From IMG/VR virus record IMGVR_UViG_3300036832_001188, positions 1 to 50,100 of that record: DNA of 50,100 nt. One strand, 5' to 3'. This stretch comes from a virus. Taxonomy: Duplodnaviria; Caudoviricetes. Shown piece after piece: positions 4,587-50,100 of this stretch. Position 1 is the first letter of the stretch. Each line of letters begins with the position of its first letter. The position numbers and the translations under genes were made by a program. The notes under the pieces were generated by a model. It ran no database searches. It was not told the origin of the DNA and was given only the letters and a program-made list of their open reading frames with translations.

Positions 4587-4600
4587 GTGAGCCTCCGATT

Positions 4601-5484: not shown

Positions 5485-5524
5485 GTGAGCCTCCGGTTCC
5501 TGAGGATGAATGTCTGCGCAGGTA

Positions 5525-35616: not shown

Positions 35617-36017
35617 GCCGATCGCTCGATGACCTGCGCCCCGAGATCCGCCCGATGGTGGATAAATTCCTTGCGGCAGTGCAGGCGGCAGGGATCGATT
35701 TGCTCGTAACGTGCACGCTCCGGTCGTTCGCGGAGCAGACGGCGCTATACGCGCAGGGACGCACCGCCCCCGGCTACATCGTCACTAAGGCGAAAGCGGG
35801 GGAGTCGGCGCATAACTTCGGCCTAGCGGTCGATGTTGTGCCGATCGTCAACGGCAAACCGGAGTGGGTGGGATCGGACCCGATCTGGGAACAAGTGGGT
35901 GAAATGGGCGAGCAGGCTGGACTCGAGTGGTATGGCGCTGTTGGGCAGCCGTTCCCGGAACTGCCGCACTTCCAACACCGGGAGTGGCGGCTGATTGCAC
36001 AACAACTGGAAGCATGA
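35613..36017 (+). CDS. endolysin, peptidase M15 family (L-Ala-D-Glu peptidase-like)
   Basis: RSFAEQTALYAQGRT, SAHNFGLAVD (SxH-x6-D), ELPHFQ. Confidence 0.92.
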   Translation: MSRSLDDLRPEIRPMVDKFLAAVQAAGIDLLVTCTLRSFAEQTALYAQGRTAPGYIVTKAKAGESAHNFGLAVDVVPIVNGKPEWVGSDPIWEQVGEMGEQAGLEWYGAVGQPFPELPHFQHREWRLIAQQLEA

Positions 36018-36541
36018 CAGTGAATATCGGCAAACAAGCTCTTGCGATCCTCACGACAGTCGCTCCCACAATTGCCACGGCGCTTGGCGGGCCGGTGGCG
36101 GGCCTTGCTGTGCAGAAGCTGGAGCAGTTCTTTGGGGTGAAAGGTGACGCGGAACTCGACGCCGCGGTCGCCGGCGCTACGCCCGATCAGATGCTTGCGT
36201 TGAAGAAGCTCGATAACGATTTCAAAGTGCAGATGGCGCAGATCGGCTTTCAGGAGGATCAGCTGGTCTATGGTGATATCGCTTCTGCGCGGCAGCGGGA
36301 GGTAGCCGTAAAGGATTGGATTCCCGCCGCCCTAGCTATCGGCATCACCGTCGGGTTCTTCGGCATTCTCGCCTTTATGCTGGTCTATGGGGTCAGGAAG
36401 GAAGCCGGCGGGGATGCCCTACTAGTGCTGCTAGGCTCGCTCGGAACTGCCTGGACGGCAGTAGTGAGCTATTACTTTGGCAGCTCGCTCGGTGCCCGCA
36501 AGAGCGCGGAGGCGCTGGCGACGATCGCCAAGCAACCCTAA
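36014..36541 (+). CDS. holin (3-TM type, putative)
   Basis: APTIATALGGP N-terminus, DIASARQRE, two TM segments, YYFGSS; ATGA overlap with the endolysin. Confidence 0.75.
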   Translation: MTVNIGKQALAILTTVAPTIATALGGPVAGLAVQKLEQFFGVKGDAELDAAVAGATPDQMLALKKLDNDFKVQMAQIGFQEDQLVYGDIASARQREVAVKDWIPAALAIGITVGFFGILAFMLVYGVRKEAGGDALLVLLGSLGTAWTAVVSYYFGSSLGARKSAEALATIAKQP

Positions 36542-36786
36542 TGCGGCTGGCGGCGTGCGCGCTGTTGGTGGGATGTTGCTCTGTAATACACGTTACACAA
36601 CCGGAGAGTAGAAAATATGGCTATCCTTCCATTCCTTCTTCAATTGATAGCTCTGGTCTGCTTAATCTTTGCTACTTTTGGGTTATTCCCGAACAGCAAG
36701 GTGGCGTGGGGCTGGGCGGGAATGTTCCTATGGCTGTTGTCGCTGATGGTATCGGTGATTCAACTGCACCCTGCACAGTAGAGTAA
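36541..36786 (+). CDS. possible lipoprotein (o-spanin-like), 81 aa
   Basis: TAATG coupling to the holin; MRLAACALLVG-C lipobox-like N-terminus. Confidence 0.4.
   Translation: MRLAACALLVGCCSVIHVTQPESRKYGYPSIPSSIDSSGLLNLCYFWVIPEQQGGVGLGGNVPMAVVADGIGDSTAPCTVE
36617..36781 (+). CDS. two-TM small membrane protein (54 aa)
   Basis: GGAG SD; MAILPFLLQLIALVCLIFATFGLF...AWGWAGMFLWLLSLMVSVI. Confidence 0.6.
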   Translation: MAILPFLLQLIALVCLIFATFGLFPNSKVAWGWAGMFLWLLSLMVSVIQLHPAQ

Positions 36787-36791
36787 GGTAG

Positions 36792-37232
36792 ATGAGCGAC
36801 TTTAAGATAAGCTTTCAGGTCGCAGGTACGATTGTCGTTGAGGAGATTAAGAGAGCGCCGCCGGCAGCGCCGGGAGTGCGCGTACAATTCATTAAGGAGG
36901 GTAACGTGTCTAGTAATCTTGTTACGATCACCCCGCCGACCACCCGCACGGATGGGTCGGCGCTGGCCCTGACGGACATCCAATCGATCCAGTTATCGAA
37001 GGCCGTTGATAGTGGGGCGGCATCGGTAGTCCAGACCTTTCCGGCCCCCATCACCGGCGATGTGACCTTTACGGACAGCACGCCGGATATGGGATCTACA
37101 GATAACTATAGTGCTATCGTCACCGATACTCACGGAAACGTGAGCCCGGCGGGGACAGCTTCGGTGGTAGTTCCGCCCAGTCAACTCGCTCCGCCTGCTG
37201 CTCCTACCCTTACCGCGGTATTCCAACCGTGA
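36792..37232 (+). CDS. FN3/Ig-like virion-associated protein
   Basis: PPTTRTDGSAL...FTD...YSAIVTDTHGNVS...PPAAPTL. Confidence 0.6.
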   Translation: MSDFKISFQVAGTIVVEEIKRAPPAAPGVRVQFIKEGNVSSNLVTITPPTTRTDGSALALTDIQSIQLSKAVDSGAASVVQTFPAPITGDVTFTDSTPDMGSTDNYSAIVTDTHGNVSPAGTASVVVPPSQLAPPAAPTLTAVFQP

Positions 37233-37295
37233 TCCCGGGTGGACCCAGAAAGTAGTGATGGCTAGCTATGTGCTATGTCCGATGCGCGGTAGATA

Positions 37296-38492
37296 CTAGT
37301 GGGTTGTGTGTCCGAGCTTCGCGCGAAGGCAGTTGCCGCCGACCGGCTCCATGAGGCCGGCGGCAATCGCCCCCTTCACAACCGCGTCGAATTGGCGGAA
37401 GTCCGGGAACGCTGAATGGACGTGCTGGTAGGCTTCCGAGTATGTTACGAGGCCGTGCCGGTGCACATACCTAACGAAGCGCTCCGTCTGGATGCTAACC
37501 TCTGTCCGGCCGATCCGCGCAAATACCTTTTGCATATCCCGCTCGAGGTCCGTTACCATATTAACTGCCGTTTTAAGGTCGTCTACCTCTATCACTAGGT
37601 CATCCTTGCGCGAAGCGCAGAGGATCATGGCTGTCTTGTGGACGTGGGTCTGTTTGCGAGCGAGATACCCAGCAAAACGATCGTCGTCGAGTTCATCGGG
37701 CTTGTTGCTCCAGTGGGCGGCGTACCATCGCTTTCCCCATTCGGTCGCGTCAGCCGATAACGTGTACGTACCCAATAGAGATTCGTGGATATATTGGAGA
37801 TCTGCCACCAGCCGGCGTCCGGTGTCAGCGAACCCTGGGGGTATGTCGAGAATTGGATATGCGACAAGCTTATCTTTAGTATCCGCGTATACGAACAGAC
37901 ATCGGGAAGTGAAGCCGCCGCCAATCACGTACTCGGGGAAGTTGCCCGCAATCCAAGCGGGCGTCGTGCAAGCAACAATATTAATCCACGGATTCTCCAC
38001 GACATCGGCGCCGTTCCCTTTGGTTAGTTTGTGAAAGATCCCCTGTTTGCCGTCCCAGAGGCTAACCAGGAGATCGACCATGTCCCGGTCGTTGGGATTG
38101 ATCAGGTTGCCGAATTCCCCAGACTCTAATGTCAATGCGGACTGAACAATCGGGTCCCCATTCAGCTCGAAGGACTCTCTCGATTTCGCGAAGTCGGTCA
38201 CTAATGCTTGCCATGTGACGGCGTCTGGGCCGAATTTCACTCCCTCGACCCTGCGCAGCAGGTTCATCGCGATGGAGGCTGTGGTGCTCTTGGATACGAC
38301 CCCCGGCGGGGCTACTAAAATTACATACATATTCGTGTGCCATCGATAATACCCTTGCTCGATCCAGACATGCCGTTGGAGAGCGCCGGCGAGCGCAGCT
38401 GCGCCGGACCAAAAATGCATGCGCCGCGGGGCCTCGCTATATGAGGCAAACTCCACGTACGCAGACAACCAGTCTGCGAATTCCCGGGCCAC
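37296..38492 (-). CDS. DUF3987-like P-loop NTPase (putative replicative helicase)
   Basis: NMYVILVAPPGVVSKST, ESGEFG, LWDG, GGFTSRCLFV; next to the DNA polymerase. Confidence 0.7.
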   Translation of the reverse strand: MAREFADWLSAYVEFASYSEAPRRMHFWSGAAALAGALQRHVWIEQGYYRWHTNMYVILVAPPGVVSKSTTASIAMNLLRRVEGVKFGPDAVTWQALVTDFAKSRESFELNGDPIVQSALTLESGEFGNLINPNDRDMVDLLVSLWDGKQGIFHKLTKGNGADVVENPWINIVACTTPAWIAGNFPEYVIGGGFTSRCLFVYADTKDKLVAYPILDIPPGFADTGRRLVADLQYIHESLLGTYTLSADATEWGKRWYAAHWSNKPDELDDDRFAGYLARKQTHVHKTAMILCASRKDDLVIEVDDLKTAVNMVTDLERDMQKVFARIGRTEVSIQTERFVRYVHRHGLVTYSEAYQHVHSAFPDFRQFDAVVKGAIAAGLMEPVGGNCLRAKLGHTTH

Positions 38493-38498
38493 TGATTA

Positions 38499-41015
38499 CT
38501 ATGCGCAATGGCCCCATGAACGCTCGCTTGTTTTGATAGAAACGGGTATCACGAGAGGGTCATCGTAGGGGATTGTCACTTTAGCTACTTCCTTTAACTG
38601 GTCGAGGGGGCCGCGGAACTGTCCACAGATGCTATCGTGCAACTGTAAGAGCACCTGGACATCGGGCAGCCGCTCATAAATATTCAGCCAGATCCGATTA
38701 ATCACTATCGAGACTGTGGACTGGGGGATCCAGGCGATAGCTTCGGGGAGGATACTGTCAGGTCGATCGAATATAATCCATCGGTAGCCAAATTTGTTCT
38801 CAATGAATCTGCGAGAGGTGATTTGAGCCGCAACTCTATTGTGCCATCTAAGGATTCCAGGGTGAGCACCAAACCACCTTTGCTGCGATAGATCGATTTC
38901 ATGAACAGTCCGGCCGCAGTGTGCCGCCATTGTGCGAGCCTTCCCCCCATAGTTGGTGCCGTGGACAAAGACCTTGGCGTATTGTCGGTCGTGTTTTCTA
39001 GACTCATAGTGTCCCTCGTAACGCGGGTGGTGTTTAACTAGTTCGTCGAGCGGCGGCGGCTCCTTTCCCACTAGCGCATAGGTGTTGAGTAGATGTATAT
39101 CCACTCCCATCCGCATAGCTGATTTAAGCAGCTCGTCTTCAGCTTCCCAACAAACGACGAAGAGATCGGCACGCTCGAGATCCAAATCAAACCAAGTGCT
39201 ATTAGCATCGGGAATGAAAATCTCCCTGATATTGGGAAACTGATAAGGATCCCCGAGACAGCTGAGCGTTCCGCGAGCAGCCGCTTTTCCGATTGATTTA
39301 GATTGCTCAGAAGGAATTGTCTGAAGGTTTGTACCTGATCCAAAGGCGTCCTGAGAGCTGGAGAGACGGTAAGTTTTTGGTGCAGATTTTCCACTCTCGG
39401 ATCCTCCGATGTTGTAGGAGCAGCGCATGCGGCTGTCGGCCGAGAGCGGGCGGCACAGAAAGTTAGAGAGGAACTTGTTGAGGGTGCGAATATCGCAGAC
39501 CGCGTTGACTAGGGGCCGGACCAGCGGCTGGATTTTGGCGAGCCGTTGGAGCGCCTCATCGTTGAGGGTCGGCTTCGCCGGTTGATTCTTGACCGCTCGA
39601 GTCATCTGCACTGGCAGTTTAAGATCCTCATAGAATAGGCAGTGCATCTGCTTCGGCGATTCGGGATTGATGGGATGTCCAAGGACATCAATTAGGAATT
39701 GTTCCCTCTGCGCAACTGCTTCCTGAACCTCCAGTATAAGTTCCGCACGACGCTTCGTATCGATCTTGACCCCCCGGAGCATGGCCTGTAGAACCGGCCA
39801 GAACATACGCTGTTGCGCTTGGTGAATAGCAGAGAGGCCAAGAATGTTGGCGGTCTTAGTGATTTCGCGCGACACTTCATACGTGTATACGCAGTCTTCG
39901 CAGTTATAGTGCCAAAGCTGATCCTCAGCGAGGGACGCTTCCCATGTCTTCGATTCCTCTTTCCAATATACATAGTAATCGCAATACATCGAGGCTATGA
40001 AGGCGAGACCCTTGGGGATATCGCTGAAGATGGAGTGCTGGCCGATCATCGTGTCGTGGACGACACGAGGCACGAAGTGCCAATGTTTCCAGGTGTATTG
40101 GGAATCGTAGAGGAGATTCTGTCCGATTACTCGGACTTGCGGGTGGGTGAGCAGTCCTTGTAATCGAAAAACAATGTCGGCCTCTTGGTCGACAGTCCAA
40201 TAACCTTCAGTCCGTTCGATGCACATGAACGGGATACAGATAGCATCGCGGAGCGACCAAGCGAGTCCAGCGCACGCGATATGTCCCGCTCGAGTTTCGA
40301 GATCGAAGCTGAGGTCGAGTCCTCCTCGATGCATAGCTCGAATGAATAGCTGATCCAGAGTTTGTATGGTTCGCTCATAGCTAGGTCTTATTTGAAAGTT
40401 CCATTGGGGGTCGGGGTACTGCGCCGCGCGGTATCGGGCCGCTCGTCGGAGATCTGCCACAACAATCGCTCTCTGTTTCCATTCACGTAGGACGCTAGCA
40501 GGATGGATGGTGGGCAGTACTTGCGTCCGCGGACTAAAGGTTCCATTAGTATGCAGTAGACTGCCGCGCCACTTGGTAATCCCCGATAGTCCGGCCAGTG
40601 CCCATAGGGGAGTATTTCCCAGCGCAATGATAATGTTGGGGCGGACTTGTGCAATCTCGGTTTGTAGAAGGTCAAGACCCTCCAGAACCTCGCGTGTGCA
40701 CCAGCGTCCCGCATGTTCCGTATGGGCCGCTGTGCGGTGCTTTTTGGACTTGGCGAAGAATGCGCTGATGTCATTGTTGGGTGGCCTAATCTTGCAGACG
40801 TTAGTGATATAACATTCTGTCCGCAGAATGCCCGCTTCCTTGAGCATCCTGTCTAATTCGTAGCCGGAAGGGCCGACGAAGGGGCGGCCGAGGCGTTCCT
40901 CGTCAGCGCCCGGCGCTTCCCCGCAGATCAATATCCGCGCGCTTAGCGGACCCTCACCTTTTACCACTACCCCACTCCAGCGCCGAAGGCGCTCCGTGGC
41001 GGGGGCCGCTTCCAT
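38499..41015 (-). CDS. polA: family A DNA polymerase with N-terminal uracil-DNA glycosylase (family 4-like) and 3'-5' exonuclease domains (start may be GTG at 40967)
   Basis: UDG motifs GEAPG...RPFVGPSG, TNVCKIRPP, IHPA; exonuclease FDLET, QNLLYD, YNCED; polymerase RLSS...NLQTIP, DLERADL, RQYAKVFVHGTNYG, LQLHDS. Confidence 0.93.
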   Translation of the reverse strand: MEAAPATERLRRWSGVVVKGEGPLSARILICGEAPGADEERLGRPFVGPSGYELDRMLKEAGILRTECYITNVCKIRPPNNDISAFFAKSKKHRTAAHTEHAGRWCTREVLEGLDLLQTEIAQVRPNIIIALGNTPLWALAGLSGITKWRGSLLHTNGTFSPRTQVLPTIHPASVLREWKQRAIVVADLRRAARYRAAQYPDPQWNFQIRPSYERTIQTLDQLFIRAMHRGGLDLSFDLETRAGHIACAGLAWSLRDAICIPFMCIERTEGYWTVDQEADIVFRLQGLLTHPQVRVIGQNLLYDSQYTWKHWHFVPRVVHDTMIGQHSIFSDIPKGLAFIASMYCDYYVYWKEESKTWEASLAEDQLWHYNCEDCVYTYEVSREITKTANILGLSAIHQAQQRMFWPVLQAMLRGVKIDTKRRAELILEVQEAVAQREQFLIDVLGHPINPESPKQMHCLFYEDLKLPVQMTRAVKNQPAKPTLNDEALQRLAKIQPLVRPLVNAVCDIRTLNKFLSNFLCRPLSADSRMRCSYNIGGSESGKSAPKTYRLSSSQDAFGSGTNLQTIPSEQSKSIGKAAARGTLSCLGDPYQFPNIREIFIPDANSTWFDLDLERADLFVVCWEAEDELLKSAMRMGVDIHLLNTYALVGKEPPPLDELVKHHPRYEGHYESRKHDRQYAKVFVHGTNYGGKARTMAAHCGRTVHEIDLSQQRWFGAHPGILRWHNRVAAQITSRRFIENKFGYRWIIFDRPDSILPEAIAWIPQSTVSIVINRIWLNIYERLPDVQVLLQLHDSICGQFRGPLDQLKEVAKVTIPYDDPLVIPVSIKTSERSWGHCA

Positions 41016-41033
41016 GCAGCCCCTACCGCTTAA

Positions 41034-41189
41034 CTAGTCTGCTGGACTTGCTTCTTCGTCTTCCAGCCGGTCCAGTTCTATCTGAACCTCTTGGATCAGT
41101 TCTTCTAATAGCTCGTAGTCGAGTTCTTCGGGGAGTAGCTCGAGGCGATCGGCGTAGGCACGGAGCGCTACTACCAATTGCTCGCGCAC
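41034..41189 (-). CDS. small highly acidic protein (51 aa)
   Basis: MREQLVVALRAYADRLELLPEELDYELLEELIQEVQIELDRLEDEEASPAD; fills the gap between flanking genes. Confidence 0.6.
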   Translation of the reverse strand: MREQLVVALRAYADRLELLPEELDYELLEELIQEVQIELDRLEDEEASPAD

Positions 41190-41193
41190 AGTC

Positions 41194-41670
41194 CTAGACC
41201 TTGGCGACTGAGCGAATGCGATCCTGCAATATACCAGAGCCCTTGGGGTATTCTTCGTGTCTGATTTTAACGCGGATGGTGCGGCCGACCACGGACATGG
41301 GACTCCAGGCTTGGCCCTTGGCGTTGGTGCCGGTCGCCTCCCGGAGCGCGGTCATCTGGCTGTTCCGCCCCGCGGACCAGTCCATGGCTCCGCCATCGGT
41401 GAGATCGATGCCCATCGAATGGTTGATGGTCACCGTGTCCTGGCCGATCCGCTTGTGTTCAGCGGGATTGCTGGTCAGATCGATAGCGAGCGGATAATCG
41501 ATAAACGTATAGAGCTTGCTGGGATCTTCCTTGCCGGCGTGCTGGCGCGGGGGCCTCGGCTCGCCCACGATAGCGATGTAATCGTAGTCGGTGGAGAGGG
41601 GCGGGCGGCGCTGTCCCGCTTCGGTGGTCGTGGCATTCAGGAATTCATTGGGATCGAATATGCTGGTCAT
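41194..41670 (-). CDS. putative ssDNA-binding protein (DUF669-like OB fold)
   Basis: Follows the exonuclease and Sak4-like ATPase; LREATG...VVGRTIRVKIRHEEY pattern. Confidence 0.6.
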   Translation of the reverse strand: MTSIFDPNEFLNATTTEAGQRRPPLSTDYDYIAIVGEPRPPRQHAGKEDPSKLYTFIDYPLAIDLTSNPAEHKRIGQDTVTINHSMGIDLTDGGAMDWSAGRNSQMTALREATGTNAKGQAWSPMSVVGRTIRVKIRHEEYPKGSGILQDRIRSVAKV

Positions 41671-41683
41671 TGCTAGTACTCCA

Positions 41684-42559
41684 TCAGGATTTGACTGTGG
41701 GCGAGAAGCGGCCTCCGCGGGAGGTCCACTTATCTAGGATCTGGCTGAAGCTGGGAACTATTCCTTCGGCTAGAACTAGATTTCTGGTTTTGAGGTCTGC
41801 GAGCGCATTCGCCGTAGACCACGAGAATTTAGTCCCCTCCCGTACAGAGAGGATAACGTCGCTAAACATTGGAGGAATCTTAGGGGCGAGCGCTCGACCC
41901 AAGGTTGAGACGGTGATTTTAACGCCGCCGAAAACCTGATCGATCTCCCGCTCAACGTGCGCTGTAAGCACAAAGTGGCACTTGCAACCATCGGCTAGCT
42001 GTCTAATCAGGTTTTCGATTTGCGTCTGCGCAATCCCCCAGTCAGCTTGTGACCTAACAGGCTTGCCACCGACAACAAGCGAGAGAGCGATTGGATTAAT
42101 TCCTGTGAGGCTATCCACTGCCAGGAGGTGGTCCGGCCCCCATTTATCAATTGGACCAAAACGGCGTCCCGTTCGGTCGTCAGGGAAATCAGCCAGTGCT
42201 CGTAGAAGGCCGATGAATTGATTGTGACGAGATCGATTGGGATCTGAAGTCTTGTGGAGACTCTCCTGAGTTTGGCGATTAATAGCTTCTGCTGTCGCGG
42301 CGAGAGTTGTGAAATCAGTAGAACCGCGCTCAAGGGTATGCCAGTGGACGGTCTCGGGAATAGGTTCGCCTCGATCGCTCCAATATCCGAGGAAAGACTC
42401 GAGTCCACTCTCGGTAAAGAGGACGAAGGTTTCGAGGCCGGGACGGGGGATGGTGCCGAGGGCATGGGTTTTGCCAGAGCCGGTGGGTCCTTCAAGTAAT
42501 ACATTCACGCCGGCTAGGAGCGAGGGCTGTTCGAGTGGGATCGGCTGGCTGTTCATCAT
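41684..42559 (-). CDS. Sak4/AAA_24-like recombination ATPase
   Basis: GPTGSGKT, LAVDSLT, FVLTAHVE, FSDVI. Confidence 0.8.
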   Translation of the reverse strand: MMNSQPIPLEQPSLLAGVNVLLEGPTGSGKTHALGTIPRPGLETFVLFTESGLESFLGYWSDRGEPIPETVHWHTLERGSTDFTTLAATAEAINRQTQESLHKTSDPNRSRHNQFIGLLRALADFPDDRTGRRFGPIDKWGPDHLLAVDSLTGINPIALSLVVGGKPVRSQADWGIAQTQIENLIRQLADGCKCHFVLTAHVEREIDQVFGGVKITVSTLGRALAPKIPPMFSDVILSVREGTKFSWSTANALADLKTRNLVLAEGIVPSFSQILDKWTSRGGRFSPTVKS

Positions 42560-43478
42560 CTACCTCGAGGATTGTTTCTGTTCGAGTGACTGGATCCCAA
42601 TGGCGGCGCTCGAAGTAGCTCTCGAGCCATGGCCGCTCATCTTGCGACTGGCAGACAGTCGCAAAGCCACACCCCCCATAGCTAGTACAGGATTCATCTA
42701 GGTTGTACTTGTATCGTCCGGTTCTCCACCAGCCGATCGCTTCTGCGATCCATTCGAGGAGTTCGCCGTACCAGCGATCCACCATCCAATCTGGTCGGTA
42801 GCTAATGGCTTCGATGGTCTCGTACTTGGTTTTGAGGATGGAAACTCCCCGAACCACCACGCCCGCAGCGCGGATACCATACTGTCGGCAGCCCCAGCAA
42901 TATCCTGTGAACTGGGATCGGAGATCCCATTTGCGTCCCCAAGTACTTCCAAGGTAGCTAGTTGTCTTCTCGTCAAACACAAAGGTATCTCCAGCGTATT
43001 GGAGAATCGCATCCAGTCGTCCGCAATATAGTATGGGATGACCTGTAACTGGATGGTCAATCGAAAGGGGATGCGCAAAGCTGAATTCGATCGCGCGTTT
43101 GCCGCCCGGAAGAGTGATTGGGTAAGCGGTGTTATGAGAGAGGGGATAGTTGGAAAAATAGAACTCGAGAGCACCGGCGGTTCTGATAGCGGACTTGCCG
43201 CTGTCGGGGGGACACTGGAAGTCACCGTAGTGGGTGAGGAGCGCCCGCGCGCCCATCGCGATCGAGTCCTCTGCAGAATGTCCGTCCACGTAAAAGGCAT
43301 TTCTGGTTACCTCGAGGCCGCGGGCGAACGCACCCCCAGCGATTAGATGCACGTTCAACTCTTTAGCTTTCCACTGGTCGACGTAGATTTTCTTGAAGAG
43401 CTGCGGACACTGCTTCAGGGTCGCAACCATCGAGCTATCGAATACCTCTGGGAAATAGTTGACTAGAGAACTTGGCAT
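42492..43478 (-). CDS. PD-(D/E)xK exonuclease, Cas4/AddB-like with four Cys
   Basis: N-terminal CP, GRLDA...DEKT, QFTGY, C-terminal C-x5-C-x5-C. Confidence 0.85.
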   Translation of the reverse strand: MPSSLVNYFPEVFDSSMVATLKQCPQLFKKIYVDQWKAKELNVHLIAGGAFARGLEVTRNAFYVDGHSAEDSIAMGARALLTHYGDFQCPPDSGKSAIRTAGALEFYFSNYPLSHNTAYPITLPGGKRAIEFSFAHPLSIDHPVTGHPILYCGRLDAILQYAGDTFVFDEKTTSYLGSTWGRKWDLRSQFTGYCWGCRQYGIRAAGVVVRGVSILKTKYETIEAISYRPDWMVDRWYGELLEWIAEAIGWWRTGRYKYNLDESCTSYGGCGFATVCQSQDERPWLESYFERRHWDPVTRTETILEVDDEQPADPTRTALAPSRRECIT

Positions 43479-43567
43479 AACAGATAAACGAGAATAGAGG
43501 CGGTGAGGCCGATGAGGCCGGTTATAACTATCAAGGCTAGGATCTGCTCAACGCTTCTTAAGGCCAT
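43463..43567 (-). CDS. small single-TM peptide (34 aa)
   Basis: MALRSVEQILALIVITGLIGLTASILVYLLCQVL bridges the gap between genes; weak SD. Confidence 0.35.
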   Translation of the reverse strand: MALRSVEQILALIVITGLIGLTASILVYLLCQVL

Positions 43568-43748
43568 CGAGCAGAGCGTCTACGTCAACGGGCTTTTTGG
43601 TTCGCTTCGCGGAGCGAATGCTGGCCTGCTGGCGCTCCTCGCGGAGGAGCCGCATCGATTCCTTTACGTCCTCTAGGGTTAGGGTTCCGTTTGCCTCCTT
43701 TAGTTGGAGCTGAGAGATTCGGTCTTGGGTCTCTGGGCTGTAAAGCAC
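43548..43748 (-). CDS. hypothetical protein (66 aa)
   Basis: GTG start after GAGGA; helical, ends VDVDALLDGL. Confidence 0.65.
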   Translation of the reverse strand: MLYSPETQDRISQLQLKEANGTLTLEDVKESMRLLREERQQASIRSAKRTKKPVDVDALLDGLKKR

Positions 43749-43917
43749 GGAAGTGATCCTCGATTAGTTGAATAAAAAACCGCTGATAGGCAGAGTGGGG
43801 TATACGGCCTTCGGCGGCGCTCCACAGATGCAAGCTAATCCTTGCCCAGACCTTGCGCGGCAGCGCAATGTTGAGCGCTACGCTGGGCTCAATATTGGGT
43901 TTACGGCCGCGGGTCAC
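43585..43917 (-). CDS. ribbon-helix-helix-like DNA-binding protein (putative)
   Basis: RGRKP...VALNIALPRKVWARISLHL strand-helix pattern; GTGA coupling. Confidence 0.5.
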   Translation of the reverse strand: MTRGRKPNIEPSVALNIALPRKVWARISLHLWSAAEGRIPHSAYQRFFIQLIEDHFRALQPRDPRPNLSAPTKGGKRNPNPRGRKGIDAAPPRGAPAGQHSLREANQKAR

Positions 43918-44009
43918 TTGGGTAGCTCGAACATTCGGATTCGTCGTTCTCGTTTATGCAGACTTCGTCTACGATTGTATATTTCTGCGCCGCTCGGCGG
44001 GCGCGGCAT
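43914..44009 (-). CDS. small Arg-rich peptide (31 aa)
   Basis: MPRPPSGAEIYNRRRSLHKRERRIRMFELPK; stop overlaps the next GTG. Confidence 0.4.
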   Translation of the reverse strand: MPRPPSGAEIYNRRRSLHKRERRIRMFELPK

Positions 44010-44106
44010 TGGCACCACCACCAGTAGGGCCGTTTCCACCAGACTGGACGGGGATCGATTAGCTCGAAATTTATCAGGGGGGCCTTTGGCGGCGGCGGCG
44101 CGCCGG

Positions 44107-44172
44107 GAATTATGTGCGCAGATTGATCGATTTATGTGCGTAGAGTGTGCGCCTCGCCGAAGGCGAGGTCAA
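44107..44172 (-). promoter_or_regulatory. putative promoter/operator of the replication operon
   Basis: TTGACC-17 nt-CACACT; perfect palindrome CCTCGCC-GAA-GGCGAGG at 44152-44168; TTATGTGCG direct repeats at 44110 and 44132. Confidence 0.5.
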
Positions 44173-44239
44173 GACGTGCGTCACACTTCTAGCGAATTTC
44201 TATGCATAGGGCCGGCCCCGGAGGCCGGCGGTCCCCCGT

Positions 44240-44266
44240 AAACACAAACGGCCCCTCACGGGGCCG
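44240..44266 (-). terminator. intrinsic terminator ending the early region
   Basis: CGGCCCC-GTGA-GGGGCCG then TTTGTGTTT on the minus strand. Confidence 0.75.
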
Positions 44267-44353
44267 CTGTGCGCCCGCCGTCGGAGGCTCATTTCCTCGG
44301 CGGACTTCACCGCGCGCTAGGACACCAGCGCGGGTGCATTTGGATTGCGGCCG
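44240..44353 (-). ncRNA. candidate 3'-UTR-derived small RNA with an anti-SD seed loop
   Basis: Three stem-loops; the middle loop holds UGAGCCUCCGA, complementary to the early-gene SD box; G-U wobbles work only on the minus strand. Confidence 0.5.
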
Positions 44354-44965
44354 TCAGGCCGCGGGAGCCTCCTTGAACCGGGAGAGTAGGCTATCGGTAT
44401 CGACCGGCGTTGCACGCTCCTGTTCCAGCCGCTCGATGATTGGGCGGATGCGCTTGTCTTGGGCGAGAGCTTTGCGGTCGATGCCAGACATGGCCTTGAG
44501 GCCGGCGCGGATGTCCTCGAGCGAATTTCCAGTGAACTCCACGAGGGCCAGAGCGAGCACACCAGCGGTCTTGCTGGCAGCCTGACCGTTGCCCCGGGCC
44601 ACGGCCCATTGGCCGGCAGAGAGCCTCTCGTGCAGCTTGTCCGTGGCCTCGGGCCACTTCGCTACGGTGTCCGCCGATTCGTTGGCAAGTGCCGCGCCGT
44701 ACTTGGTTAGTGCGCCCTGCGATACGAACTGATTGGCTAGATCTGGGTTCAGCGGGTAGGTGCGGGTGGCACCGCTGCGGAAGTCTAATCGCACCGCAAT
44801 ATCGCTGATGGAAGCGGCCGCTAGGGTGGTGGCGTCGACCCCATCGAGCGGCTGTCCACCCACCAATATCTCCTTAACGAGGTTCGTCCTCGAACCCGCG
44901 AACTTGACCATTCGGCCATCGGCCATCCTGACTGTTTCTACGACTGGTTTCTTTGCCTTGGGCAC
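44354..44965 (-). CDS. hypothetical protein (203 aa), distant paralog of 4652-5218
   Basis: GTG start after AAGGAG. Confidence 0.8.
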   Translation of the reverse strand: MPKAKKPVVETVRMADGRMVKFAGSRTNLVKEILVGGQPLDGVDATTLAAASISDIAVRLDFRSGATRTYPLNPDLANQFVSQGALTKYGAALANESADTVAKWPEATDKLHERLSAGQWAVARGNGQAASKTAGVLALALVEFTGNSLEDIRAGLKAMSGIDRKALAQDKRIRPIIERLEQERATPVDTDSLLSRFKEAPAA

Positions 44966-44975
44966 GTCTGTCTCC

Positions 44976-45464
44976 TTAACGGTAGTGTGCGAATTTTCGC
45001 TTAACGACAGCGAATAATAGCACCCCAAAAGCTAGTAGGGGGAAGGTGGAAGGTTCGGGGACAGAGAAACTAGCGGGGGTGATGTGGAGGGAGTGGAGAT
45101 CGGCGTAGCCGATCGCGGTCGAGGAGAGTTGCTCGCCGCCTATCCAGAAGCCGCCCCGTTGGTAGTGGCCGCCTTTCCAGAGGGAAACGTTGTAGCAGCC
45201 TGGACAATGGATCGATTCGAGGCCGCCGCGCATGCTATCGATCGCCCCTACGTGGCAGATGTTCTGCGGACCAGCCCCTTGGGGGACCGCGCCCATCGGC
45301 ATTATGCTAATGCAGGTGTTGTTAGAGGGATCGAGTTCGAGGGCCCACGCCGGGCCACTGAGGATCATATTGATCCCCTCTACCGTGTAGGTTCCGCCGG
45401 TGGAACCGCCGTCGTAGCTCACCAGCTGCATAGGACCGCCGGTGAGGATGATGGTGTCGATCAT
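44976..45464 (-). CDS. PEP-CTERM sorting-signal protein
   Basis: C-terminal VPEPST + TM (FPLLAFGVLLFAVV) + KRK; GAGGAG SD. Confidence 0.8.
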   Translation of the reverse strand: MIDTIILTGGPMQLVSYDGGSTGGTYTVEGINMILSGPAWALELDPSNNTCISIMPMGAVPQGAGPQNICHVGAIDSMRGGLESIHCPGCYNVSLWKGGHYQRGGFWIGGEQLSSTAIGYADLHSLHITPASFSVPEPSTFPLLAFGVLLFAVVKRKFAHYR

Positions 45465-45688
45465 GGTTGTCTCCTCTCAGTTGTTCCGTTGTCACATATC
45501 GGGCAGTGGAGCCATATGTTTCCATCCTTGAGTATGGTGCTGATCAAGGTGTGTCCCGGCTTACCGCATGTTCTCTCGATTACTGATCTCACGGGATGTG
45601 GTAACGAGTCGCAGCCCGGGGCGCGACGCATATCCTGTGGCCCTTCGGCGGGCCGCAGGGCTTCGCGACGGGCAGTCATCGCACCCAC
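45461..45688 (-). CDS. small Cys-rich (Zn-ribbon-like) hypothetical protein
   Basis: CGKPGH...HCPIC; ATGA coupling (start possibly 45679). Confidence 0.55.
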   Translation of the reverse strand: MGAMTARREALRPAEGPQDMRRAPGCDSLPHPVRSVIERTCGKPGHTLISTILKDGNIWLHCPICDNGTTERRQP

Positions 45689-45858
45689 CCTCCCTTTTCT
45701 GGCCGGTAGGTGTAGCTGTACCCCCTGCGCCGCGCATCACATTTGCATCCATGACCGTCCCAAGAATCCGTACCCGCCTTGCGCCATCCGCATACTTGGC
45801 AGAACGGGTGGAATGGCTGTGGCTTGTCCTTGGTCACAACGATTTTCACGGTGCTCAC
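45676..45858 (-). CDS. small CxxC hypothetical protein (60 aa)
   Basis: FCQVCGW...CKC; GTGA coupling. Confidence 0.55.
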   Translation of the reverse strand: MSTVKIVVTKDKPQPFHPFCQVCGWRKAGTDSWDGHGCKCDARRRGYSYTYRPEKGGWVR

Positions 45859-46322
45859 GTCTTCTTCTCCTCGGCGGGGCGCATGGCTTCGCGAGCGCGT
45901 AGCAACGCTGGTCCGATGGTTACGCTGACTTGAAGCGCTGCATCTTCAGTCGTTTGCGGCACACGCATGTGCTCAACAGCAGCGACCAGCCCCGCCAGCG
46001 CCGCCCGCAGCCGCTCGTTTTCACCTTGATACTCCCCAAGCCGTGCAGCTTGTTGCATCCAGCCTTGTAGCTCTAGCGTCAGCCGCTCGTTTTCTGTAGA
46101 CAGTTTAGAGCAGATCGTTACGTGCCGCCCAATGTCGTGGGTCAGCTGCTCGTTGTCCTTTTTCAATCCAGTAACAGCCGCCCGCATCAGTTCTGTGTCA
46201 ACGATATTCTGCTGTAGGCGGGTTAGCCGCTCGATCTCATCGGCGGCATCCATCAGCAATTGCTGCCCGGTAATATCGTCGCCGGTATCCCAGTCGCGCA
46301 GCCGATTGACTAGATCGCTCAC
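45855..46322 (-). CDS. coiled-coil hypothetical protein (Ead/Ea22-like)
   Basis: DLVNRLR...DAADEIERL...ENERL repeats. Confidence 0.7.
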   Translation of the reverse strand: MSDLVNRLRDWDTGDDITGQQLLMDAADEIERLTRLQQNIVDTELMRAAVTGLKKDNEQLTHDIGRHVTICSKLSTENERLTLELQGWMQQAARLGEYQGENERLRAALAGLVAAVEHMRVPQTTEDAALQVSVTIGPALLRAREAMRPAEEKKT

Positions 46323-47257
46323 AGCCCCCCCTGTCCGGTCTTGAGAGCGCCAAGGCTTTCATCGCCTAACTGCTCGCCACCGAAGTCAGCCTCGTTGAGT
46401 CCCGGCGAGCCGAGCAGGTCAATGGCGTTTATCTGCTGAATGAGCAAGTCGGTGTCGAACGTCGCGGTGAATGCAACGCCATCGATCACTGGGCCGATGG
46501 CATCGCCGATTGCCCGCTGGAGTGTCGGGTCGTAGGTCTGAATGAGATTACTCATTACGGTTCCAACTACATAGCCGCCACCGAACCAGATCACCCCCTC
46601 CGGAATCAACGTGCGGACCAGCAACCCGAGGCCCTGCGCGGCATCACCCGTTGCAGCAGTACATTCCGCCCAGGCCTGCATGAGAGTGGTCTGTGGAGGC
46701 CAGCCTCCAATGGTGGGTACGATCTTCTGGATGCGCTTGCGTCCGCCCGGGATCGAGGTCGCATAGATCGACTGGTTGTACATCAGGTTTACCGTTGTCA
46801 GCCGATTGATAGCGGCATGCGAGGCGACACCCAAGAGATTTCCAAACAGGATATAGCAGGAATACCCGCCGGGACTCTTCTGGAAGACCACACAGAATTC
46901 GTAAAACTGAAAACTGCTCATCGACCAGAAATATTTATATAGCTCTGCGGAGCCGCCATGGGTACGCTTAGCAACCAAGTAACGCATCATCGTGGGAACG
47001 AAGTTTTGATTGATCTGTGCCGCGGTTGCGCCGACGACCGGCGAGGCTTCTACACGCCCGATAACTGCCGCCAGAGCGACAAGACCAAAAGCCCAGTACC
47101 GAGCCACCAGCAGGCTTTTCGCCAGCCGCTTCGACTGTGGAGATGCTTCACCGCTTCGGTGATCGGCATCCGGTAATAGCGCCAGTTGTGCGGGTCGAAG
47201 CTTAGCGTTAACAAAACGCCGGATAGCATTGTGAGAACTTGGGTTGTGTTCATTCAT
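46319..47257 (-). CDS. hypothetical secreted or membrane-active protein (start uncertain)
   Basis: Signal-peptide-like segment YWAFGLVALAAVIGRVEA-S; Gly-rich hydrophobic helices near the C-terminus. Confidence 0.6.
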   Translation of the reverse strand: MNEHNPSSHNAIRRFVNAKLRPAQLALLPDADHRSGEASPQSKRLAKSLLVARYWAFGLVALAAVIGRVEASPVVGATAAQINQNFVPTMMRYLVAKRTHGGSAELYKYFWSMSSFQFYEFCVVFQKSPGGYSCYILFGNLLGVASHAAINRLTTVNLMYNQSIYATSIPGGRKRIQKIVPTIGGWPPQTTLMQAWAECTAATGDAAQGLGLLVRTLIPEGVIWFGGGYVVGTVMSNLIQTYDPTLQRAIGDAIGPVIDGVAFTATFDTDLLIQQINAIDLLGSPGLNEADFGGEQLGDESLGALKTGQGGL

Positions 47258-47357
47258 CTTCCTCTCCGTAGTTGTCTGATTCGAAGGTGTCGTTGAATCC
47301 GAACGACGATGTTTCATCGTCGTCGGCATCGGCGTCCTCGCCGATCCAGTCGATCAT
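47250..47357 (-). CDS. very acidic peptide (35 aa)
   Basis: MIDWIGEDADADDDETSSFGFNDTFESDNYGEEDE; ATGA-coupled to the upstream gene. Confidence 0.55.
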   Translation of the reverse strand: MIDWIGEDADADDDETSSFGFNDTFESDNYGEEDE

Positions 47358-47668
47358 TCGCTCGACTGCAGCCAGTGAATGGCTTCTTCGTGCATTTCGA
47401 GGGCCTCGGCCCAAGTGCTGCAGCGGGTCTGGTAGTCGAGGGCGGTGCTGCCCGGCCCGAAAATCATTGTCTCGAATAGAATTGGGGGGCCATCGAACCA
47501 CTGATGGTCTATTCCTAGGAAGACGGTGGAGACTAGGTGGTCGCCAACTAGGGATTTGGCGACGTGACGATCGGCGGACTCGAACCACTGGCCCCACTCC
47601 ACAATATCGTCCGTTGGAATGGCGATATGGTCCTTGAGGATGTACCTGCCTGCCATATTCGATTTCAT
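47354..47668 (-). CDS. conserved phage hypothetical protein (104 aa)
   Basis: VSTVFLGIDHQW...PILFETMIFG; TAATG coupling. Confidence 0.75.
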   Translation of the reverse strand: MKSNMAGRYILKDHIAIPTDDIVEWGQWFESADRHVAKSLVGDHLVSTVFLGIDHQWFDGPPILFETMIFGPGSTALDYQTRCSTWAEALEMHEEAIHWLQSSE

Positions 47669-47856
47669 TAGCGGCCCCGCAGGATAGTTTGGATGCTGGA
47701 CAGCAGGGTTGTGTGCTGGTGAAGCACCTGGACAGTTTCCTCGAGCGCCACGGCGATTTGATGGGTGTTCTTGATACCAGCTTCCATGGCGGTGGCGAGC
47801 CGGATTAGGTTGGATTCGAGATCCTCGAGCTTGGTGGCGAATGCGAGGTATTCCAT
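47668..47856 (-). CDS. hypothetical coiled-coil protein (62 aa)
   Basis: MEYLAFATKLEDLES...; GGAGG SD and TAATG coupling. Confidence 0.65.
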   Translation of the reverse strand: MEYLAFATKLEDLESNLIRLATAMEAGIKNTHQIAVALEETVQVLHQHTTLLSSIQTILRGR

Positions 47857-48056
47857 TAGCGGCCCTCCGTTAGTGCGGACCATTCTTCGTCGCTGGTGCC
47901 GCTGATGAGGAACTCTCTGTCGGCCGCCGACAGGTGTGGCATGACGTTCTGGATTAGCTCGCCCTGTTGCCAGCGGGCTAGCTGTTCGGGGGTGCAGTCG
48001 ATGTCGCGGGTGCGTGTGATGCCGGTGAGGGCGGATTTGCGGGTTACTCGAATCAT
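47856..48056 (-). CDS. conserved phage hypothetical protein (66 aa)
   Basis: RKSALTG...LIQNVMPHLSAADREFLISG; TCGGAGGCTC SD at 48061-48070. Confidence 0.75.
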   Translation of the reverse strand: MIRVTRKSALTGITRTRDIDCTPEQLARWQQGELIQNVMPHLSAADREFLISGTSDEEWSALTEGR

Positions 48057-48265
48057 GGTTGAGCCTCCGAGTATTTGGCGATGGCGGCGCGTGCGCGCGC
48101 ATTGGCGAGGGAGCCATAGTCTTTGTACTCGGCGATCTCGCGCAGCGCGGTCAACAGTTCGGCGTTGGCGGACTCGAGACCCTCGATGTAGTCGAGGGCC
48201 TCGTTAGCGAGTCTGCGGAGCATGATAACGTCGAGGGCGGCGAGGCCCCTATCTTTAGAGGTCAT
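48053..48265 (-). CDS. hypothetical protein (70 aa)
   Basis: ELLTALREI...ARAAIAK; coupled to neighbours. Confidence 0.65.
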   Translation of the reverse strand: MTSKDRGLAALDVIMLRRLANEALDYIEGLESANAELLTALREIAEYKDYGSLANARARAAIAKYSEAQP

Positions 48266-48449
48266 CGTTGGTGTGCTCCGCTACCTTTGTGACTAGTCCG
48301 TGAAGGGCGAGGCGCGCTGGCAGCACTACATTCCAGTTACAGTCGTTGCAGCAGCGGCCGTCATTGACGGGCTGCGCGTTATTGCCCCATTCGATGAAGG
48401 GTAGGAAACAGATCGAGCAGATTTTGGGTTGGTCTAGTTGGGTGGTCAT
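48255..48449 (-). CDS. small Zn-binding hypothetical protein (64 aa)
   Basis: CSIC...GNNAQPV..GRCCNDCN. Confidence 0.7.
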   Translation of the reverse strand: MTTQLDQPKICSICFLPFIEWGNNAQPVNDGRCCNDCNWNVVLPARLALHGLVTKVAEHTNDDL

Positions 48450-48928
48450 TTGGTGTCCTTGGCCTCGGTGGGCGTGAGTTTGCCGGCTCGCCAGCGACGG
48501 ATCATTGAGCCGCTGATTCGGAATTTGTCGGCGGTGGCTCTGTGGCCGTGCTCTTTGTAGTAGGAGAGGATCTCCTGTTTCATGGCGGGGGTGAACTTGC
48601 GGCGCGTGGTTTTGCGGGTCTGGGAGCCGGTTTCGATTCGACGGGCGTATTCGGCGGCGTAGTTGCGCTTGCTGTTGTCGTAGACGCGCTTGCTGTCAGC
48701 GTAAGAGCGGCGGCGGGCCGCTTTAAACTTGCCGCGGTTGGCGCGGTACCACTCGCGCGCCCAGCGGCGCTTGCGCTCGAGAGCCGATTCGCCGCTAGCT
48801 GGCGCGGTGCCGTTGGCGCGGCCTTGCGCGCCGCTGGTGATTAGGCGGACTGCCTCCAGGTAGAGGGTCTGCTGCAGGCCCTCGCCTAGCTTGGGAATGA
48901 TTTCGTTCCAGTCGATCTGTGATTTCAT
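48446..48928 (-). CDS. basic HTH DNA-binding protein
   Basis: RRKFTPAMKQEILSYYKEHGHRATADKFRISGSMIRRWR; AGGAGGCTC SD. Confidence 0.75.
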   Translation of the reverse strand: MKSQIDWNEIIPKLGEGLQQTLYLEAVRLITSGAQGRANGTAPASGESALERKRRWAREWYRANRGKFKAARRRSYADSKRVYDNSKRNYAAEYARRIETGSQTRKTTRRKFTPAMKQEILSYYKEHGHRATADKFRISGSMIRRWRAGKLTPTEAKDTK

Positions 48929-48937
48929 TTGAGCCTC

Positions 48938-49096
48938 CTAGACTCGCCATCCTTTTCGGCAGCGAAGATGCGATTTAAGATTATCTACAGTGTAATGGCG
49001 ACGTGTTGGATAGTAGCTGTAGTGGTAGCGGCCGGACCGCCAGCGGACATATTCTGCCCAAGCTGTGTTTAGGAAATCCCGCTTCCAATCCTGCAT
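48938..49096 (-). CDS. small basic/aromatic hypothetical protein (52 aa)
   Basis: MQDWKRDFLNTAWAEY...KGWRV*; CGGAGGCTC SD at 49102-49110. Confidence 0.6.
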   Translation of the reverse strand: MQDWKRDFLNTAWAEYVRWRSGRYHYSYYPTRRHYTVDNLKSHLRCRKGWRV

Positions 49097-49122
49097 GGTG
49101 TGAGCCTCCGTAACGCTCCGCG

Positions 49123-49578
49123 TTAGCTAGCGTGCTTAGTGAGAGAGCGGACGCCCTCAGTGTAGTGTTTGCGATTCTTCTTATATTGGTTGGTTTTGCG
49201 GCCCGGCTTCTTGGGAATTCGGGTCGTGCGGCCGAGTAGATTACCCGCATGTACCTTGTCGAGTTGGTATTTGCCGGGAGAGAAGCTGTGGGAGCGGTCG
49301 AACACGATGAGTTCCTTTTCGACGTGATCGGGGACTTGGTAGCGGTAGGCGGTGCGGCCTCTAATCAAATAGGCTCGCGATAGCGAGACGATTGCGCCGT
49401 CCCAGCGGCGCTCGGCGGCTTTGGCGATCGCACAGAGGTTAGCGGCTTTGCCGACGCCTGAGTCGCAGTCACGCTGCGTGACTGTGATGATCGTGCCGCG
49501 CTTGGCGTCCTCGACTTTGTTGACATCGGGATAGTACCTGCGCACGAAGCGAAGTGCTCCCGTTCCTACGTTACTCAT
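49123..49578 (-). CDS. hypothetical basic protein (151 aa)
   Basis: ORF with AGGA SD; ITVTQRDC...CAIAKA. Confidence 0.7.
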   Translation of the reverse strand: MSNVGTGALRFVRRYYPDVNKVEDAKRGTIITVTQRDCDSGVGKAANLCAIAKAAERRWDGAIVSLSRAYLIRGRTAYRYQVPDHVEKELIVFDRSHSFSPGKYQLDKVHAGNLLGRTTRIPKKPGRKTNQYKKNRKHYTEGVRSLTKHAS

Positions 49579-49603
49579 ACGATTGGTTCCTGTGTGACTT
49601 GGG

Positions 49604-49701
49604 GGAATTTCGGATTAGTGGGAATTTCGGTATAGCGGAATTTCCAAATAGCGGGAATTTCGATATAGCGGAATTTTGGTATAGCGGACCTGGACAATAG
49701 C
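49604..49701. repeat. tandem array of 16-17-bp units GGAATTTCGGTATAGC (5 copies plus 1 degenerate)
   Basis: Units start at 49604, 49621, 49637, 49654, 49670 and 49686. Confidence 0.9.
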
Positions 49702-49809
49702 GGGCGCTGGCCGCAGCGCCGCGCAGCGCGGACAGAGGCCGCCGGTGCCGTAGACTAGCGGGATGCGGGCGCCGCAGCGGGCGCACTGATGGTAGCGTTG
49801 CTGGGTCAC
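49615..49809 (-). CDS. Zn-ribbon hypothetical protein running into the repeat array
   Basis: CARC...CPRC; GTGA coupling. Confidence 0.5.
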   Translation of the reverse strand: MTQQRYHQCARCGARIPLVYGTGGLCPRCAALRPAPAIVQVRYTKIPLYRNSRYLEIPLYRNSH

Positions 49810-49985
49810 TCAGCGGATCTGTCTGGGTAATGGTGAATGCAAACGAACTGGTTGTCGTTGGAATAACCTAGTAGGTGGCCACCGGTGGCGTAACAGTAAC
49901 CGTCCGGTGCCACGTAACGGTAGACGAGCGGCACGAGCGCCGCGAACGATAGACCGATTACTATTCCGATGAGCATATGTTTCAT
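49806..49985 (-). CDS. small TM hypothetical protein (59 aa)
   Basis: Start MKHMLIGIVIG after TCGGAGGCTC (49989-49998 = 16-25). Confidence 0.65.
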   Translation of the reverse strand: MKHMLIGIVIGLSFAALVPLVYRYVAPDGYCYATGGHLLGYSNDNQFVCIHHYPDRSAE

Positions 49986-50100
49986 GGTGAGCCTCCGAGC
50001 TGCCGCTTCGGCAGCTAGTAACCTTCCACTACGACTGTCGCGATGCGACGGCCGCTGCTGTCGAGCAGGCGAAATTCGGCCCAATCGCTGCCGCCGTCGG
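49974..50100. repeat. 127-bp terminal direct repeat (copy 2)
   Basis: Identical to 1-127. Confidence 0.95.

Follow-up and report, generated by a model that had tools for sequence, protein, structure and literature searches.

A complete viral contig of 50,100 bases from IMG/VR with 57.4% G+C (record IMGVR_UViG_3300036832_001188, Caudoviricetes; the whole stretch is called the window in the following) encodes on its minus strand, between the end of a gene block and an intrinsic terminator, a hairpin whose loop is the exact antisense of an extended Shine-Dalgarno (SD) box. This box stands in front of about a dozen of the phage's own non-structural genes, all in the block which we call early on the strength of its gene layout. 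We give an even chance to the reading that the hairpin, named anti-box hairpin here, is a riboregulator that the early transcript carries at its 3′ end and which masks the box start sites from ribosomes. The hairpin is conserved in divergent relatives on covarying stems, the box is confined to one gene class, and loop and box co-vary.

The element lies behind the stop codon TGA of its upstream gene (44356-44354, minus) and comprises three helices. Hairpin 1 (44308-44336, minus) has 12 pairs with one bulge and one G·U pair. Hairpin 2, the anti-box hairpin (44273-44305, minus), consists of an 8-bp stem (GUCCGCCG/CGGCGGGC) including one U·G pair and a 17-nt loop (AGGAAAUGAGCCUCCGA). The terminator (44240-44268, minus) has its stem at 44268-44247, a GUGA loop and the tail UUGUGUUU; with nine pairs, seven of them G-C, and TGTGTTTACG after TT it has the make-up of an intrinsic terminator, and it was the first minus-strand site in a terminator scan of 36000-50100. 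Within the loop of hairpin 2 lies the anti-box 11-mer UGAGCCUCCGA (44281-44291, minus), read on the plus strand as an exact match of the box TCGGAGGCTCA and its sole antisense copy in the genome. Folding of 44380-44230 (minus) with RNAfold gave a minimum free energy (MFE) structure of -87.4 kcal/mol with exactly these three helices, while shuffled versions of the segment averaged -67.1 (z -5.08) and none of 200 was as stable. Across the ensemble, the probability that the loop bases AAUGAGCC stay unpaired is at least 0.96. No Rfam family, the C4 antisense RNA included, matched 43000-45500 on either strand in cmscan at E <= 1.

A preliminary description of this DNA, made from its letters, had already proposed the two hairpins and the terminator on the minus strand with one G·U pair in each hairpin, and sequence and fold agree with it on both counts. 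It had further suggested that a box-like sense copy in the last codons of the upstream gene (AAGGAGGCTC, 44365-44374, minus) sequesters the seed. The copy exists, but sequestration was rejected: the summed probability of its pairing with the seed is 0.09, and in none of ten relatives do the 150 nt upstream contain a complete sense box. Past the terminator (44100-44230, minus) there is another G+C-rich hairpin with GCCUCC (GGCCGGCCUCCGGGGCCGGCC), and GCACATAA occurs there twice as direct copies 16 nt apart.

The box TCGGAGGCTCA was found 12 times in the genome when at most one mismatch was allowed, compared to 0.94 expected matches, and none of 100 shuffled sequences reached this number. Seven of the matches are exact, six on the minus strand and one on the plus strand, the last being the loop of hairpin 2 (44281-44291). 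Each exact minus-strand copy ends 1-3 nt ahead of an ATG, and the extended form UCGGAGGCUCA is found on a subset of the non-structural genes and on the minus strand only. The exact boxes are located at 49988-49998 (ATG 49985, duplex with the loop -22.5 kcal/mol), 48060-48070 (ATG 48056, -23.2), 3540-3550 (ATG 3537, -22.9, with 12 nt of complementarity to the loop), 2367-2377 (ATG 2365, -21.9) and 4588-4598 (ATG 4586, from pattern and duplex scan). The first of them has the same sequence as 15-25, since a direct terminal repeat of 127 bp (1-127 and 49974-50100) duplicates this box together with its start codon (12 / 49985); because the copies belong to the repeat they are counted once. One mismatch is present in the boxes at 49101-49111 (ATG 49096, 10 nt complementary to the loop), 48930-48940 (ATG 48928, 9 nt), 5486-5496 (ATG 5484, 10 nt, the first gene past a promoter-like site) and 1855-1865 (ATG 1847, 10 nt), and partial boxes precede ATG 5218 (5219-5229, 9 nt), ATG 3171 (3177-3187, 9 nt) and ATG 2677 (2681-2691, 8 nt), again all on the minus strand. 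Thus the five exact and seven further starts with 8-10 nt of complementarity listed in the preliminary description were all recovered, except that the start at 4586 does not open a normal gene but a hydrophobic mini open reading frame (ORF) of 18 codons. This mini-ORF (4533-4586, minus; product MGLVFAIMLVVCAILWLR) is bracketed by terminator-like hairpins at 4629-4609 and 4524-4504. The 3′ arm of the former, CCCUCCGAUC, is complementary to the box 10 nt downstream and forms a local anti-SD.

GGCTCA was absent from all 30 crudely called starts of plus-strand (structural) genes, which have plain AGGAG-type sites instead. The extension of the box is therefore not a general preference of the host but the mark of a gene class. 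Its flanks, UC before and CUCA after GGAGG, presumably do not pair with the 3′ tail of 16S rRNA, taking the canonical tail as a guide from which the host's own 16S may differ. Extended pairing with 16S rRNA as the cause of the box was rejected on the basis of this tail and of the late genes, which lack the extension.

The strongest predicted duplexes of the loop within the genome fall at box-bearing start sites. A duplex scan at -14 kcal/mol returned more than 100 sites and was uninformative, so that only sites at or below -20 kcal/mol are reported here. On the gene-sense strand 15 sites reach this value with the 17-nt loop; ten of them (nine unique) are box start sites, and four of the other five are antisense to late genes. 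The accessible bases AAUGAGCC face GGCUCA(U), just those box letters for which the 16S rRNA tail offers no explanation. We calculate that chance would place an exact antisense 11-mer on a 50-kb strand about 0.01 times. The complementarity of loop and box is confirmed as real, beyond chance and not a coincidence of one genome.

From these features the following mechanism can be proposed. The anti-box RNA would be the 3′-terminal part of the minus-strand early transcript, made up of the 3′ untranslated region (UTR), hairpin 1, hairpin 2 and the terminator, and may accumulate as a discrete stable RNA of about 100-110 nt, either stable as made or after processing. Its open loop bases AAUGAGCC would contact GGCUCA(U) first; the helix would next extend across GGAGG until it measures up to 11-12 bp, and is predicted to be far stronger than the 5-bp contact GGAGG:CCUCC with 16S rRNA. 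Such a duplex, formed in vivo and mainly between molecules, would cover the ribosome-binding site (RBS) and repress translation, so that the output of about 12 box-bearing ORFs would fall as the RNA accumulates. In this genome the RNA would act from the 3′ end of the early unit on about 12 sites upstream in the same unit. The idea of an early region of about 11 kb with a built-in timer is compatible with the positions of the terminator (44268-44247) and of a promoter-like site (5552-5525). This candidate start of the early unit (5525-5552, minus) is a consensus match only, TTGCTA-16-TAGAAT of the sigma-70 type, and is faced by a divergent sigma-70-like match at 5675-5702.

The hairpin is not restricted to the window. 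Relatives were collected from IMG/VR by a polymerase search, which gave 16 loci with 28-67% identity, and with an alignment of four members of the upstream-gene family (A1), which gave 40 loci; a single-sequence IMG/VR scan with the upstream protein of 224 amino acids had found no close relatives. For the comparison 19 whole related records were oriented on the homologue of the upstream gene; G004 and G005 have no such homologue and stand outside this set. At many loci a hairpin with the loop ..UUGAGCCUCC.. follows the stop codon of the homologue and is itself followed by a terminator-like hairpin. A stem scan around GAG(C/U)CUC detected gene-strand hairpins with the loop (U)UGAG(C/U)CUC in 12 of the 19 records (G000, G001, G006, G007, G008, G009, G011, G012, G013, G014, G019 and G020), G007 and G014 being near-duplicates at this locus. 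In G006, G019 and G020 it is located 0.4-1.4 kb further downstream, past another gene. Further copies were found in L035, in the metagenome contigs L121, L123 and L124 and in the GenBank record MW202489.1. A pattern scan of metagenomes with the 5′ half of the G000-type hairpin gave four matches, three of them with the hairpin; the fourth, the AT-rich L122, does not fold and was taken as a chance match. The same type of scan in IMG/VR returned just the two contigs already known. As the relatives were collected through the upstream protein, adjacency of its gene to the hairpin is partly a matter of construction; in L121 and L123 the hairpin stands in a different gene context.

The 8-mer TGAGCCTC occurs on the sense strand 11 times within the 28.6 kb that follow the conserved gene (from 5 nt before to 1.5 kb after its stop) compared to 14 times in the remaining 715 kb. 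This is an enrichment of about 20-fold over the 0.56 copies expected in the former (Poisson P 2.6e-11). Across the divergent relatives the loop is presented by 16 different stems, always on the gene strand and usually just 5′ of a terminator. Examples are GUCCGCCG/CGGCGGGC in the window and GUCCACGG/CCGUGGGC, GUCCAGG/CCUGGGC, GUCCCGGAG/CUCCGGGGC, AAGCCUGCG/CGCAGGCUU, GAUCGCG/CGCGAUU and a 14-bp stem in G013. The stems were compared by a script anchored at the closing pair, since MAFFT placed the 3′ arms in different registers owing to the differing loop lengths. Among 12 lineages the closing pair is G-C in all, whereas stem positions 2-7 show three to five standard pair types each; G·U pairs account for 14 of 119 stem pairs. 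The sequence of hairpin 1 is not conserved, and G000-type relatives also have a hairpin directly 5′ of AAGUCC. Covarying stems and a constant co-orientation with genes and terminators mark an RNA hairpin under selection whose loop has a function, and by sequence comparison the element is confirmed as a conserved RNA motif of 16 lineages which has no Rfam family.

Loop and box change together in several relatives. The loops of G000 and G011 contain ..CCUCCGA, and the boxes of G000 read UCGGAGG..; the loop of G006 contains ..CCUCCAG, and four of the nine G006 boxes read UGGAGG.., giving 10-11 nt of complementarity. In G012 and L035 the loop GAGUCUCC is found together with boxes GGAGACUC. The loop of MW202489.1, UUAGUCUCCG, is complementary over 10 nt to the start site CGGAGACUAA, which matches the common loop over 5 nt only, and two GGAGACU sites stand at the head of the block. 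Taken together, genomes with the loop GAGCCUC have 51 GAGGCT and 14 GAGACT start sites, those with the loop AGUCUC four and eight, respectively. The record MW202489.1 (L128), which comes from an environmental phage, also carries at 39992-40171 an ORF annotated as 'class D beta-lactamase OXA-58'; this annotation is probably an artefact because the ORF has only 59 codons.

Several observations weigh against a riboregulator. Part of the anti-SD core, its CCU, is paired in the MFE structure with an AGG inside the loop at the top of the stem. The folding test of strandedness is only moderate, as ten of 15 hairpins are more stable on the sense strand than on the complementary one; hence the claim that the G·U pairs favour a minus-strand RNA receives moderate support, and the co-orientation of the element with genes and terminators is the stronger argument. 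If each transcript yields one copy of the RNA, this copy could titrate several boxes only by outliving the mRNA. No hairpin of this kind was detected in seven of the 19 records (G002, G003, G010, G015, G016, G017 and G018), which are 92-100% complete, and some of them still have GAGGCT-type start sites (seven in G010, six in G015, five in G016). Relatives that keep the box and lack the loop had been named in the preliminary description as evidence against its idea, and they do exist alongside the 12 that have the loop. Because of them the box must be independent of the loop, which is at most an added layer of control. An association of loop type and box type was found (Fisher p 0.0033), but from crude start-site calls that are not phylogenetically independent, the near-duplicate G014 having been dropped. 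Furthermore, the own loop of a genome surpasses the mean of the other loops in ten of 11 genomes but ranks first in only three. The signal is limited since both partners are conserved, and most of the co-variation signals are weak, yet their direction is right.

Behind the homologue of the upstream gene, loop-less relatives often carry a hairpin whose loop shows a plain anti-SD, for example CACCUCC in G010 (L065 ~3618-3660) and CCGACCUCC in L063/L064 (L063 ~2640-2670). In G002 (L042:3585-3645) about ten tandem copies of GGCTGA, in the sense direction GAGGCUGA repeats and so one base away from the box GAGGCUCA, occupy the place of the anti-box hairpin just past the stop codon of the homologue of the 224-residue protein; a tRNA-like stretch lies some 350 nt beyond the array.

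The remaining points against the riboregulator concern gene order and lead to the alternative that has to be taken most seriously. The loop could serve as a cis insulator: on read-through transcripts it would capture the box of the gene that follows, whose translation would then depend on its own promoter alone. In most relatives a box-bearing gene is located 90-235 nt downstream of the hairpin (within ~90-110 nt in G009 and G020), and the order hairpin, terminator, sigma-70-like promoter and box gene recurs in G006, G011, G012, G007/G014 and G008. The first downstream start has at least 8 nt of loop complementarity in seven of 12 independent lineages, where about 0.7 such lineages are expected from the genome-wide fractions by our own arithmetic on histograms, and G012 and MW202489.1 offer the loop no better match anywhere in the genome than the adjacent gene. 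These seven lineages favour a cis or local role, a possibility absent from the preliminary description. However, no box gene follows in the window: a box precedes neither of the possible next ORFs (starts 43917 or 43748), and the 12 matches are all located upstream. For G006, G011, G009 and G020, genes other than the adjacent one provide the best matches (10-12 nt), and boxes may simply be frequent on the first gene past an untranslated gap. We regard insulation in cis as rather unlikely.

A second alternative abandons pairing altogether: the hairpin might be bound by a protein or shape the RNA end, as a nut- or put-like antitermination site or as a 3′ stability or processing element, and resemble the complement of the box without pairing to the box. 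This would suit its position immediately 5′ of a terminator-like hairpin and the conserved gene for a protein of unknown function and novel fold that adjoins it at most loci, and hairpins recognised by proteins likewise combine a conserved loop with a covarying stem. The exact complementarity of 11-12 nt to the phage's own box would then have no explanation, nor would the co-variation of loop and box in G006 and MW202489.1 or the conservation of GCUCA in the boxes. In addition, the loops measure 9-19 nt, unlike the pentaloops of boxB, and in this respect the element does not resemble a lambda-type nut site, a comparison made on loop size without a search for boxA or homologues of N. On balance a role of this sort seems improbable.

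The same complementarity that underlies the riboregulator would also serve a positive or processing outcome, in which the duplex guides an endonuclease cut between cistrons or protects and stabilises the box mRNAs. Stable hairpins of a processing- or stability-like kind do precede several boxes (terminator-like sites 4629-4609 and 1935-1912). An 11-bp duplex is short for RNase III. Moreover, a duplex that reaches over GGAGG to within 1-3 nt of the AUG should keep the 30S subunit off, as is established for c4-like anti-RBS RNAs (PMC12197685). This outcome is thus quite improbable in our judgement. It is harder still to credit a chance match or a single reversed operator for a protein that recognises all boxes in double-stranded DNA: such a protein would read the box in either orientation, and asymmetric stoperator-like sites are described for other phages in parts of PMC3203893, but the antisense 11-mer, expected about 0.01 times per strand, recurs syntenically (P 2.6e-11), the covarying inverted repeats around the loop indicate selection on a folded single strand, and the fixed distance of 1-3 nt between box and ATG points to the level of RNA rather than DNA.

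The upstream gene (44354-45028, minus), whose 3′ UTR carries the element, belongs to a conserved family of about 200 amino acids of unknown function, as judged by homology search and an alignment of 27 sequences (A4). No Pfam or PHROG family matched the protein, and a sequence search of the PDB gave just weak matches to designed repeat proteins. Its confident AlphaFold model (pLDDT 89) combines a beta domain at the N-terminus with a C-terminal half made of helices, and Foldseek found no match to it at E <= 0.001. That the protein is a known RNA chaperone is unsupported, with no match in Pfam, PHROG or Foldseek.

The gene map of the window is crude and was annotated via PHROG and Pfam matches. 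Block 1, the early block, extends on the minus strand from about 5500 down across position 1 and the terminal repeat to 44354 and contains small genes, mostly unknown. After a gap of about 600 nt it is followed by block 2 with the replication genes on the same strand, namely an exonuclease-like gene (42492-43478), a UDG-PolA fusion (38499-41015) and a primase/DUF3987 gene (37296-38492). Block 3 is the structural block on the plus strand (5710-36017). No promoter-like site was detected within 43500-45100, and none of the sigma-70 type in the 600-nt gap. The ORFs past the terminator (43585-43917 and 43548-43748) have no Pfam match. A phage ORF at 44976-45464 (minus) possesses a C-terminal PEP-CTERM sorting motif (Pfam E 3e-5), a hint that the host may be Gram-negative and possess an exosortase system. 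The sequence of the window, which belongs to an uncultured phage, was found in one sequencing run, a soil metagenome (DNA) and possibly its source, and in no RNA run, which speaks neither for nor against expression. No near-identical DNA was found among GenBank phages.

A close parallel exists in the mycobacteriophages of Cluster K. According to the sections of PMC3203893 devoted to it, their start-associated sequence (SAS) is an asymmetric motif of 13 bp which stands 3-7 nt before the starts of non-structural genes, mostly ATG, in one orientation, with the SD core inside the motif and a conservation that goes beyond pairing with rRNA; the K1 phages have one SAS in the opposite orientation and away from gene starts (PMC3203893). 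In passages of two other papers the function of SAS is still called unknown (PMC11373665, PMC12699233). Like SAS, the box is an asymmetric motif with an SD core near the starts of non-structural genes only and in one orientation (12 minus-strand starts, none of the 30 on the plus strand). It differs in consensus (GGGATAGGAGCCC for SAS, TCGGAGGCTCA for the box), and the phages and their hosts are unrelated, so that the box is an analogue and not a member of SAS.

The reversed SAS turned out to be a hairpin loop as well. In the right 41 kb of Anaya (JF704106) it is the sole reversed copy among 17 matches (L108:39871-39883); on the gene strand, between genes 96 and 97, a GCGCGG/CCGCGC hairpin presents it as its 10-nt loop CCUCCUAUCC (fold z -4.0). 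In Adephagia (JF704105, L125:2183-2195) it is again a hairpin loop CCUCCUAUCC on the gene strand, between genes 92 and 93 (about 58,670-58,700 of the record). Conservation of the region extends to 138 Cluster K records, and the loop CCUCCUAUCC is kept in seven of 11 aligned phages, DarthP, Amgine, Keshu and SirPhilip being different. Pixie (K3) has no reversed SAS, though at least 17 forward copies (15 of them exact), so that the pairing partner is not universal in Cluster K either. Late transcription of Adephagia is reported, in the relevant part of PMC11373665, to begin in the interval between genes 92 and 93. Since the anti-SAS hairpin is located where this transcription reportedly starts, late transcripts might carry the anti-SAS and shut off the SAS-tagged early genes of K1 phages. 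By analogy, and only tentatively, a recurrent and convergent phage design is conceivable, in which 'address' boxes tag non-structural genes and one anti-address hairpin RNA switches the translation of the whole class, the SAS of K1 phages included.

If the pairing is functional, it would offer a mechanism for a puzzle that dates from 2011, namely phage boxes conserved far beyond the need of rRNA pairing, and with it a testable answer to the purpose of SAS-type boxes. One short RNA addressing a whole gene class of a phage would amount to a compact and programmable translational switch. The new conserved motif with its 16 lineages can be searched for in viromes, and the anti-SAS idea is testable in a cultivable system, the Cluster K1 phages on M. 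smegmatis mc2 155, for which RNA-seq exists (Adephagia and ZoeJ).

An anti-SAS or anti-box RNA was not found described in the main texts of the open-access literature searched, while relatives of the principle are known. The c4 antisense RNA of P1/P7 (immI) is presented in parts of PMC12197685 and PMC8198154 as a structured phage RNA whose loops pair around the RBS and block translation. Like c4, the anti-box RNA would be structured, phage-encoded and part of the same transcription unit as its targets, with a loop complementary to the RBS (11-12 nt). c4 lies upstream of a single target operon, icd-ant, has two loops and is released by RNase P, whereas the anti-box element has one loop, sits at the 3′ end of the operon and matches a box common to about 12 upstream start sites; the two show no relationship in sequence or Rfam. 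Bacterial small RNAs (sRNAs) derived from 3′ UTRs, such as CpxQ and SroC, combine a seed hairpin with the terminator of the parent mRNA and need no separate promoter; they come from the host, in most cases require Hfq or ProQ, and are set free by RNase E. The anti-box element resembles them in its place between the stop at 44354 and the terminator at 44268-44247 and in having no promoter of its own. In contrast to them, its targets would be the phage's own genes. The T4 endoribonuclease RegB inactivates the SD (GGAG) of early mRNAs of T4 itself. The anti-box RNA would likewise be a phage function that shuts off its own early mRNAs through the SD, but RegB is a protein nuclease that cleaves the site, whereas the RNA would mask it. 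In RNAIII and the Rsa RNAs of S. aureus and in anti-SD sRNAs of alpha-proteobacteria a CCUCC-like loop motif pairs with the SD of several mRNAs. Those RNAs address a generic SD, while the match of the anti-box loop spans a phage-specific 'address' (GCUCA and the UC flanks) that marks one gene class. On the favoured reading the anti-box element would be of a kind already known, a loop-displayed anti-RBS RNA.

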